Notes under the pieces: generated by a model
What the model was told of the DNA's origin: nothing
Databases searched by the model: none
Seen by the model: the letters and a program-made list of their open reading frames with translations, nothing else
Position numbers and translations under genes: made by a program
Shown here: piece by piece, positions 24,288-25,103 of the stretch
Position numbering within the stretch: position 1 is the first letter of the stretch
Layout: each line of letters starts with the position of its first letter
Assembly: GCA_965205975.1 (NCBI GenBank)
Contig: OZ242195.1
Span: 3,030,656 to 3,094,655, forward strand
DNA length: 64,000 nucleotides
DNA from: Candidatus Latescibacterota bacterium
Lineage (GTDB): Bacteria; Latescibacterota; UBA2968
Direction of reading: 5' to 3'

Positions 24288-25103
24288 CTCAACCGGCAAA
24301 TCCAGCCGGTCACCCCACTCTTTCCACGACCCGATATAATTTCGGACCTTTTCATAACCCAGCAACCGCAATGCCAGGTACGTTTGGGAAGAGCGGTACC
24401 CGCCCTGTCAGTAAGGCACAATTTCCTTATCGGGGGAAACACCCACAGCCTCGTACATCGCCCGCAATTCATCCGCCGGCTTAAACGCCCCCGTCTCATC
24501 CAGATTATTCACATACTCAACATGCACAGCACCTGGAATAGCACCCCCTCGCGCAGCCCGCACATTGCGCCCGAAATACTCATCGTCACCGCGCGTATCC
24601 AGAGGCACAACATCCTCGCGCCCCAAAAGACCATTTAAAACATCGGCCCCCATGTGACGCCCCGGCACCGCCTCTGCGACAAACTCCGCAGGTTCTGCCT
24701 CCTCGCTATCCCTCGTCAATTCATAGCCCATGGCCGTCCAGGCATTGCATCCCCCATCCAGCACGCGCACATCGGGATGGCCCAGATATTCACAAATCCA
24801 AAAACCGCGCGCCGCGCGCACCCCGGAATCATCCTCATACCAGACCACCGTCTTATCCGTACCAATACCCCGGTTACTGAACAAATAACCGAGCATCCAC
24901 ATAAACGCCTCAAAAGCCTGTTCGCGGGTATCATTCAAACTGATTGAATAAAGATCCAGATGAAGCGCACCTGGAATATGCCCGGCGTGATATGCATGCG
25001 TCGGCCGCGTATCCACAATGCAGACATCGGCAGCCCTCTCATACAAATCCCGCGGCGAAATCAACAACTCGGGATTCGCATACCCTTTATCGCTCATTTT
25101 CAC
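24288..25103 (-). CDS. Candidate selenoprotein: two-domain rhodanese (thiosulfate/3-mercaptopyruvate sulfurtransferase-like) with TGA at the catalytic cysteine.
   Basis: The listed ORF ends ...DKEIVPY-TGA(24408-24410). The same frame continues [39 protein letters not shown] to a TGA at 24288. That sequence reconstitutes the rhodanese active-site loop Y-[C/U]-x-x-G-x-R-S...G.W.EW with the stop codon exactly where the catalytic Cys would be. The first domain ...[23 protein letters not shown] is typical of rhodanese. Confidence 0.6.

Follow-up and report, generated by a model that had tools for sequence, protein, structure and literature searches.

Rhodanese-related sulfurtransferases of the COG2897 type were among the new selenoprotein families described from the Sargasso Sea, where three sequences represented them (PMC1088965). 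An analysis of Global Ocean Sampling (GOS) data lists sulfurtransferase families, COG2897 included, as selenoprotein families (PMC2398784), and the COG2897 family is listed again in PMC13188914. In Escherichia coli fdhF, the upper stem-loop of the selenocysteine insertion sequence (SECIS) lies 11 nucleotides (nt) from the UGA (PMC8659212). The bacterial SECIS (bSECIS) consensus of Zhang and Gladyshev, as given in PMC13188914, asks for a stem of 4-16 base pairs (bp), a loop of 3-9 nt with G at loop position 1 or 2, 16-37 nt between the UGA and the loop, and a folding energy of -7.5 kcal/mol or lower; some bacterial SECIS elements depart from the consensus model, according to the same review (PMC13188914). 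Here we describe a two-domain rhodanese gene on the minus strand of a 64,000-nt stretch of a Candidatus Latescibacterota genome (contig OZ242195.1, assembly GCA_965205975.1, positions 3,030,656 to 3,094,655; hereafter the window), in which an in-frame UGA stands where homologues encode the catalytic cysteine (Cys). An earlier inspection of the letters, which we call the sequence-only reading, had taken this UGA for a selenocysteine (Sec) codon and not for a sign of pseudogenization or sequencing error. That core reading is upheld by a conserved UGA, an intact tail behind it and an RNA structure specific to the Sec forms, and we consider it very probable that UGA 24410..24408 is decoded as Sec at the catalytic site. 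The Sec-specific long-range RNA structure is itself strongly supported by the comparative sequence data.

Both the sequence and its translation showed the rhodanese open reading frame (ORF) halting at this TGA, as reported earlier. The continuation, previously given as 40 codons ending at a TGA at 24288, proved to be 45 codons long with a TAA stop (24272..24270); the supposed terminator is an out-of-frame TGA (24291..24289) that straddles the codons GTT and GAG. Since the start codon is the ATG at 25097, 5 nt past AGGAGG, the full product would be 275 amino acids (aa) long with the TGA at residue 230. The GTG at 25103, which the ORF finder had chosen as the start, was rejected, as it falls inside the ribosome-binding site and homologues all begin with MSDKGY. 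Coordinates of the gene and of the elements discussed below are collected in Table 1.

The product matched Pfam Rhodanese (PF00581) in two stretches (3.5e-36), and its closest solved relative was RhdA of Azotobacter vinelandii (1E0C, E 1.6e-43), with residues 6-271 aligned end to end. In this alignment YUQGGYRS faces HCQTHHRS of RhdA, which places the TGA at the catalytic Cys as the sequence-only reading had proposed, and GSWKEWG faces GSWGEWG, so that the tail does rebuild the C-terminal G.W.EW motif. The tail past the UGA could be aligned with rhodanese C-termini right to its end. The UGA thus forms a Sec/Cys pair with the conserved catalytic Cys of homologues, and U lies in the C-terminal of two rhodanese domains, where it heads the six-residue loop. 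By sequence similarity, the gene is of the RhdA/SseA two-domain type, COG2897, and homology points to a sulfane-sulfur transferase as its product. The NCBIfam 3-mercaptopyruvate sulfurtransferase equivalog scored 108.5 against a cut-off of 250, and all other rhodanese models in NCBIfam were also below cut-off. Because the loop residues differ (QGGYR here, QTHHR in RhdA), the substrate preference of RhdA is not transferable to this protein. During sulfane sulfur transfer, a Se-S (selenopersulfide) intermediate would take the place of the Cys persulfide.

We place the protein in the known COG2897 selenoprotein family, first described in 2005, on its architecture and motif and not through the exemplar sequences AACY01016424 and MCY3690685.1. 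A comparison with the rhodanese selenoproteins of marine metagenomes, which had been suggested for this gene, gave agreement, by description, in COG2897 architecture and UxxG motif. Among the rhodanese forms distinguished in PMC13188914, it has the features of 'form 4', namely PF00581, the COG2897 type and U-x-x-G, here as U-Q-G-G; the choice of form 4 over form 2 is a judgement, because form 2 is also UxxG. Two other selenoprotein models were set aside. NF041203 (rhodanese_LYCAU (seleno)protein, 'form 3', CxU) scored 32.5 bits against a cut-off of 115 and describes a single-domain family with a different motif, and NF045694 (rhodanese/DsbD fusion selenoprotein TsoB, 'form 5', UxxxxU) scored 29.1 against a cut-off of 805.

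We then compared the locus with its relatives at the protein and DNA levels. In a protein search over 5.8 billion protein clusters, of which the 120 best matches were examined, 19 clusters (63-94% identical) were only 229-231 aa long and ended in ...PY or ...CY, one residue short of the Cys, while full-length matches among the 120 carried [HY]-C-QGGYRSA. In the DNA of two of the short matches, a TGA preceded the conserved tail. When one genome per GTDB species was scanned, 80 loci were obtained from metagenome-assembled genomes (MAGs) of Latescibacterota, Poribacteria and Gemmatimonadota; TGA occupied the catalytic codon, with an intact tail of 44-52 codons, in 77 of them, and TGC or TGT in the other three. 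A metagenome scan seeded with Cys forms contributed a further 16 Sec forms, which were more divergent, as well as 61 Cys forms. The sequence-only reading had named orthologues with TGC or TGT as the outcome that would speak against Sec, and this comparison instead favours Sec, with TGA kept in 77/80 genomes and on 16 metagenome contigs.

Across the 39 codons past the UGA, pairwise differences among 75 distinct Sec sequences were 0.11 at first, 0.03 at second and 0.37 at third codon positions. Because third positions hold most of the variation, the tail appears to be translated and under purifying selection at the protein level. In about 90 orthologues of the three phyla, the UGA and the 44-52 codons downstream of it are both kept under such selection. 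On the neighbour-joining tree described below, the Sec/Cys state switched at least seven times. The two forms also differ in their amino-acid preferences, Sec forms favouring R-S-S and D-R-L and Cys forms carrying R-S-A and D-R-T/A/E.

To look for structure in the RNA, we aligned 150 nt of 75 Sec forms (alignment A2, with the UGA at columns 13-15) and folded the alignment with RNAalifold. Synonymous-site diversity over the whole gene had troughs at codons -1 to +8 and +32 to +38, the latter, at the site of hairpin D (below), being the deepest. Two elements stood out in the fold. Helix I has 11 bp, with 99.2% of cells paired; it opens exactly 11 nt past the UGA. Hairpin D follows 3 nt 3' of helix I, reads GACCGGC-UGGAYYU-GCCGGUC in the alignment with loop NGGANYU, and has a folding energy of -12.3 kcal/mol (z -3.48). 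Single-sequence folds of six of seven lineage representatives independently contained both helix I and hairpin D. The fold of the inner domain between the arms of helix I differs between lineages; in the window it consists of two hairpins, one of them the +30 hairpin of the sequence-only reading. Helix II of this domain was 91.7% paired with one covarying pair, and helix III 66% paired. An apex hairpin, UUGG-GNUAU-CCAA, present in many Poribacteria, was rejected, being 66% paired overall and missing from the window lineage. The long-range helix came out of the 150-nt fold only: RNAalifold on the first 33-78 nt past the UGA returned a UGA-proximal hairpin alone (-5.6 kcal/mol), and on the inner 58 nt alone no consensus structure.

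Linked changes on both sides were seen at four pairs of the two elements. In helix I, pair 30/105 changes from C-G (57 sequences) to U-A (17) at synonymous third positions of Arg and Glu, and pair 33/102 from U-A (59) to C-G (15) at third positions of Ser and Lys. In hairpin D, pair 114/130 changes from C-G (58) to U-A (17), with GAC going to GAU and GUC to AUC, and pair 115/129 from C-G (72) to A-U (3), with CGG going to AGG and CCG to CCU. Cells changed on both sides numbered 70, against 17.7 +/- 3.3 in column shuffles (reached in 0/500) and 0-17 when the registers were slid. A neighbour-joining tree of only the 200 residues upstream of the UGA required at least 7, 6, 3 and 3 changes of state at pairs 30/105, 33/102, 114/130 and 115/129, respectively, with almost no intermediates and none at the two pairs of hairpin D.

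The two elements track the Sec forms closely. The six inner pairs of hairpin D together with the GGA loop were found in 95/95 Sec and 0/64 Cys forms, helix I with 10 or 11 of its 11 pairs in 93/95 and 2/64, and both elements jointly in 93/95 and 0/64; owing to the shared phylogeny of the sequences, these counts overstate independence. With a covariance model of hairpin D, all Sec loci scored 33-37.5 bits and no Cys locus exceeded 14 bits. The preference for RSS in Sec forms fits a constraint at the RNA level, because UCC pairs with GGA in helix I, and so does the DRL preference, because CUG closes the D stem and gives the first G of the loop GGA.

Two Cys forms, L087 and L090 (metagenome contigs Ga0081538_10023835 and Ga0137403_10003000), carry the Sec-type residues RSS and DRLDLPI. 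Both keep 10 of 11 pairs of helix I and the stem of hairpin D, and the GGA loop is gone (CUCGAUUUG and CUAGAUUUA, respectively). From their sequences, they look like recent Sec-to-Cys reversions with a decaying SECIS.

Elsewhere in the window, pattern matches to hairpin D at 18424 (antisense of ArsC) and 19458 (inside a DUF6807 gene) were dismissed as chance. A weaker match of the covariance model, spanning 49 nt with a long loop insertion, occurs in the sulfatase gene next to the rhodanese (23971-24019, 15.4 bits), and the same match scored 24.5 bits at about 4079-4188 in L007, L008, L010, L013 and L016; this match is probably also due to chance.

A second in-frame TGA in a thiol-oxidoreductase-like gene had been reported about 12 kb away, and two such events in place of Cys had been argued to favour Sec. 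That argument stands, as the second gene was verified. It encodes a secreted TlpA/AhpC-like protein, which matches AhpC/TSA weakly, has Ig-like domains and ends in a dockerin/EF-hand-like region. The hairpin past its UGA, AGGGGCGG-GUC-CCGCCUU, conforms to the published bacterial SECIS consensus, and UGA and hairpin were both kept in three orthologous loci (L163, L164 and L165; 67-86% identity). Annotated orthologues (63-96% identical) are 321-322 aa long and start past the TGA, and more distant homologues of 440 aa are full length. A 41%-identical homologue (L166) has C-A-P-C instead of U-G-T-C. A scan of the window for TGA-bridged ORFs gave no obvious third candidate among the flagged cases that were examined, a part of the total; the others in that part were overlapping neighbour genes or an antisense shadow ORF.

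Several further observations concern the surroundings of the TlpA-like gene and of its homologues. In the block that begins with it (12114-16071), the gene precedes a 233-aa ORF without a Pfam match and, behind that, a 631-aa fusion of Redoxin/AhpC with Cu2_monoox_C, a copper monooxygenase-like domain; the same fusion lies 3' of the TlpA-like gene in L164 and L165. Its Ig-like domains match, below cut-off, the domain of the NCBIfam 'OS_HP2 family (seleno)protein'. Near the Cys-form homologue (L166/L167), 1.2 kb away, a 394-aa protein with a Pfam SelA match is encoded at L167 12510-13694. We rejected it as Sec machinery, as its neighbour is an M20 peptidase, there is no selB and the locus is not from the window lineage; it appears to be a SelA-like paralogue and not a Sec synthase.

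If the UGA is read as Sec, decoding would be carried out by SelB carrying Sec-tRNA(Sec). Several other explanations of the in-frame UGA were weighed. Gene callers and public annotations end the ORF at the TGA and Sec machinery was not seen in the window, as would be the case for a pseudogene, a nonsense mutation or a sequencing error that leaves a 229-aa fragment or nothing at all. This explanation is most improbable and in effect refuted by the comparison, given that TGA and an intact tail recur in 77/80 species of three phyla and on 16 metagenome contigs, that variation in the tail follows codon position as in translated sequence, that a conserved RNA structure is specific to the Sec forms, and that a product of 229 aa would be without any of the catalytic loop. 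Global reassignment of UGA, as in genetic codes 4 or 25, would find its support in the two in-frame TGAs and in nothing else. Among the ordinary stops of the window TGA is the most frequent, closing 18 of 42 genes, and many of the orthologous rhodanese genes themselves end in TGA; both codes are excluded because TGA serves as an ordinary stop in the window and in orthologues, which leaves reassignment a negligible chance. The UGA might also be recoded to another residue, either Cys through a SelB-delivered tRNA(Cys) with a UCA anticodon or Trp, Cys or Gly through a near-cognate or suppressor tRNA. The inserted amino acid is not readable from the sequence alone, and a SelB-dependent system that places Cys at UGA has been reported (Vargas-Rodriguez et al. 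2018, cited in PMC13582414). We nevertheless regard such recoding as improbable: the site corresponds to the catalytic Cys in a family that earlier work had catalogued as Sec/Cys (PMC1088965, PMC13188914), the window has another UGA in a redox motif (UxxC), general suppression would not agree with UGA being the commonest ordinary stop, and TGC would do for Cys, as it does in 64 relatives.

To the shared ancestry of the compared sequences are added several observations that speak against our interpretation of the UGA and of the structure behind it. A tRNA search found 0 tRNA genes in the 64-kb window, so there is no selC in it, and no SelA, SelB or SelD was found among the approximately 35 window genes scanned with Pfam. 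The Sec identity of residue 230 is a computational deduction. No conserved hairpin lies within the linear spacing of 16-37 nt, and hairpin D is about 103 nt from the UGA, its role as the SelB site being argued from geometry and from its association with Sec, and not from likeness to a known SelB ligand. Pattern and covariance-model searches of the window and 84 loci (636 kb) found no D-like hairpin outside rhodanese genes; there is nothing D-like beside the TlpA UGA, whose hairpin differs in appearance. As a whole, the window element is not exceptionally stable (z -1.48). Searches with Rfam returned nothing relevant in the whole window at gathering level or in 24250-24450 at E up to 10. Sec machinery elsewhere in the genome is supported indirectly, by the second conserved Sec gene, by a reported enrichment of SelA and SelB in bins of sponge symbionts from several phyla (PMC5649159) and by the Sec-containing hydrogenases that Poribacteria MAGs are reported to encode (PMC13582414).

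Which RNA element directs insertion is a separate question. Hairpin D fits the bSECIS rules for stem, loop, G and energy; its linear distance is 103 nt, or 21 nt with helix I looped out. We propose that helix I would loop out the intervening codons and place hairpin D beside the ribosomal mRNA entrance while the UGA occupies the A site. Along the folded path, the loop of hairpin D would then be 11+3+7 = 21 nt from the UGA, within the canonical 16-37 nt. Under this model, hairpin D would be the SelB-binding part of a composite (split) SECIS whose SelB hairpin, about 100 nt downstream, is brought close by an 11-bp helix, a proposal to which we give even weight for and against. Because no D-like hairpin occurs elsewhere in the 636 kb and the TlpA hairpin is unlike it, hairpin D is not to be called a generic SelB ligand.

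Sec could instead be inserted through a local SECIS, that is, the proximal hairpin at +5, the hairpin at +30 or the tip of the long rod, with helix I and hairpin D serving in pausing, mRNA stability, blocking of release factor 2 or as a regulatory site for SelB of the kind that precedes E. coli selAB. The sequence-only reading had nominated the first two, GCGG-GUA-CCGC and CCUGGCA-UUGCGGU-UGCUGGG, and both exist in the window, but the comparison across lineages supported neither. The proximal hairpin has a folding energy of -9.7 kcal/mol and is 98% paired across orthologues, its core GGCGG-GUN-CCGC resembles the TlpA core GGCGG-GUC-CCGCC, the +30 hairpin is part of the minimum-energy fold of the window, and bacterial elements are described as lying immediately 3' of the UGA (PMC13188914). 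Against these points, the proximal hairpin starts 2-4 nt past the UGA and would thus be inside the ribosome, to judge from the 11-nt rule (PMC8659212), has no two-sided covariation, is no more stable than shuffled sequence (z -0.78), and shares its 3' arm with the 5' arm of the covarying helix I. It recurs because Sec and Cys forms share the codons GGN-GGN-UAC-CGN (GGYR), and Cys forms still make 5.2 of its 7 pairs. Across lineages the +30 hairpin reaches only 80% pairing and is broken in many places; helix II is a competing fold. SelB might also bind helix I or its extension, with hairpin D as an accessory. A local or other SECIS seems to us less likely than the composite one, and the smaller remainder of the probability goes to arrangements that we do not specify.

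Table 1. Features of the rhodanese and TlpA-like loci in the window; A2 columns refer to the alignment of 75 Sec forms.
Feature	Coordinates	Strand	Details
Full rhodanese selenoprotein gene (predicted)	24270..25097	-	275 aa, U230, two rhodanese domains; sequence and translation
Shine-Dalgarno AGGAGG	25103..25108	-	5 nt 5' of ATG 25097; read from sequence
In-frame UGA, proposed Sec codon U230	24408..24410	-	opposite catalytic Cys of homologues
Spacer CAGGGCGGGUA	24397..24407	-	11 nt, UGA to first pair of helix I; A2 columns 16-26
Helix I, 5' arm CCGCUCUUCCCA	24385..24396	-	codons Y-R-S-S-Q; A2 columns 27-38; RNAalifold
Variable inner domain	24327..24384	-	58 nt, closed by helix I; single-sequence folds
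Helix I, 3' arm UGGAAAGAGUGG	24315..24326	-	codons W-K-E-W; A2 columns 97-108; RNAalifold
Hairpin D GACCGGC-UGGAUUU-GCCGGUU	24291..24311, loop 24298..24304	-	7 bp; A2 columns 112-132; invariant GGA
Sulfatase gene, TTG start 24250	22793..24250	-	starts 19 nt past rhodanese stop; Pfam Sulfatase 5.4e-47
Sulfatase ribosome-binding site AGGAGGAGG	24258..24266	-	TTG 24250 follows 7 nt later
Secreted TlpA/AhpC-like protein gene	12114..13415	+	UGA 12294..12296, U-G-T-C within Y-N-U-G-T-C
Canonical SECIS-type hairpin of TlpA-like gene	12307..12327, loop GUC 12316..12318	+	starts 10-11 nt past UGA; -11.0 kcal/mol

These results bear on annotation, on the distribution of Sec and on how SECIS elements are sought. 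All public copies that we examined are cut to 229-231 aa and named as sulfurtransferases although they lack the catalytic loop. The records MYF73618.1, MGA1194946.1, MDP6038000.1 and MFT5367527.1, for example, end at the UGA, the names in use being 'sulfurtransferase', 'rhodanese-like domain-containing protein' and 'thiosulfate/3-mercaptopyruvate sulfurtransferase', and one single cluster of such shortened records has 216 members. Because no NCBIfam model covers the family, the misannotation will keep spreading over hundreds of MAGs. The Sec form is near-universal in the genomes of Latescibacterota, Poribacteria and Gemmatimonadota that carry the gene, phyla that are apparently largely host-associated here, and many MAGs bear names that suggest sponges and corals. 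Such a distribution fits the enrichment of SelA and SelB in sponge symbionts (PMC5649159) and suggests that selenium-dependent sulfur transfer matters in the sponge and coral niche.

Selenoprotein finders based on SECIS assume a hairpin 16-37 nt from the UGA, so a structure about 100 nt away would be missed. If the composite SECIS proposal is true, bacteria would offer a natural case of Sec recoding directed from a distance, and the Sec-specific residues (RSS and not RSA, DRL and not DRT) would be explained as constraints imposed by the RNA. A functional long-range structure would widen the definition of the bacterial SECIS, and its natural compensatory variants make the system testable.

In the window and in close Latescibacterota relatives, the rhodanese gene is flanked by an NTP-transferase on one side and a sulfatase-penicillin amidase pair on the other. 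The sulfatase had been assigned an internal TTG start at 24250, which is borne out by a full-length Pfam Sulfatase match and a length of 485 aa, as in the L001 orthologue. More distant Latescibacterota and Gemmatimonadota loci have a sulfatase less than 3 kb away on the other strand, and Poribacteria loci have none. A link between the rhodanese and sulfatase chemistry is only suggestive.

Other features of the window were noted in passing. Multihaem c-type cytochromes are encoded at 4619-5830 and 5983-8784, the second fused to HEAT/TPR repeats, followed by an FGE-sulfatase protein (formylglycine-generating enzyme family, 8797-9648) and a YcaO-domain protein (9769-10779), whose gene overlaps that of a TPR protein (10776-11999) at an ATGA junction. 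A MIP-family channel gene (17656-18378, aquaglyceroporin-like) is followed by a 140-aa ORF (18397-18819, MNRVLILCTGNSCRSQ...) resembling low-molecular-weight phosphatase-type ArsC; to judge from their sequences, the two look like an arsenic-resistance pair, the ArsC call being by motif only. The plus-strand GC skew is strongly negative over positions 1-36000 (-0.23 to -0.29 in 4-kb windows) and is not simply an effect of the coding strand, because it is unchanged over a block of plus-strand genes at 12.1-18.8 kb. From 36000 to 56000, GC content falls from about 0.54 to 0.42-0.49. Encoded in this segment are a transposase of the Mutator family (37640-38824) and a truncated ABC membrane fragment (38875-39363). 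Two tandem pairs, each of a MacB/FtsX-type permease and a 6-bladed beta-propeller protein, lie at 39573-43219 and 43994-47652, and further genes encode an AhpC/TSA protein (48112-48834), an S8 peptidase fused to DUF1611 (48978-50879) and, at 54155-55594, a radical SAM/PqqD protein. The segment resembles an acquired island and is possibly a peptide-modification and export cluster.

Compared with described systems, the enzyme itself is familiar. The COG2897 selenoprotein family shares with the window protein its two domains, Sec in place of the catalytic Cys, the U-x-x-G motif and homologues that mostly have Cys. Earlier reports of this family comprised few marine sequences with a simple predicted stem-loop, whereas here the Sec form is the rule in three phyla and comes with a long-range structure. 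An inactive N-terminal domain and a catalytic C-terminal domain are common to the window protein, RhdA (1E0C) and the tandem-domain sulfurtransferases 1UAR and 3HZU (SseA). RhdA likewise has a six-residue active-site loop behind the nucleophile (CQTHHRS, compared to UQGGYRS here) and the GSW.EWG motif, but its nucleophile is Cys and that of the window protein is the proposed Sec.

The enzyme family is thus already known, while the RNA arrangement is undescribed as a bacterial SECIS variant in the searchable literature, which contained no description of a long-range arrangement of this kind. As in the canonical SECIS of E. coli fdhF, the structured RNA begins 11 nt past the UGA and lies inside the coding region. 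The candidate hairpin D agrees with the bSECIS consensus in its 7-bp stem, 7-nt loop, G at loop position 2 followed by another G, and energy of -12.3 kcal/mol. It departs from the canonical loop distance of 16-37 nt, being 103 nt away in linear sequence behind an 11-bp helix that encloses 58 nt. The SECIS elements of archaea and eukaryotes, in the 3' untranslated region, likewise act from roughly 100 nt or more off the UGA. Those elements are outside the ORF, have other core motifs (a GAA_A bulge or a kink-turn quartet) and depend on SBP2 or other factors, whereas the window element is inside the ORF and apparently gains its proximity to the UGA through RNA folding and not through adaptor proteins.

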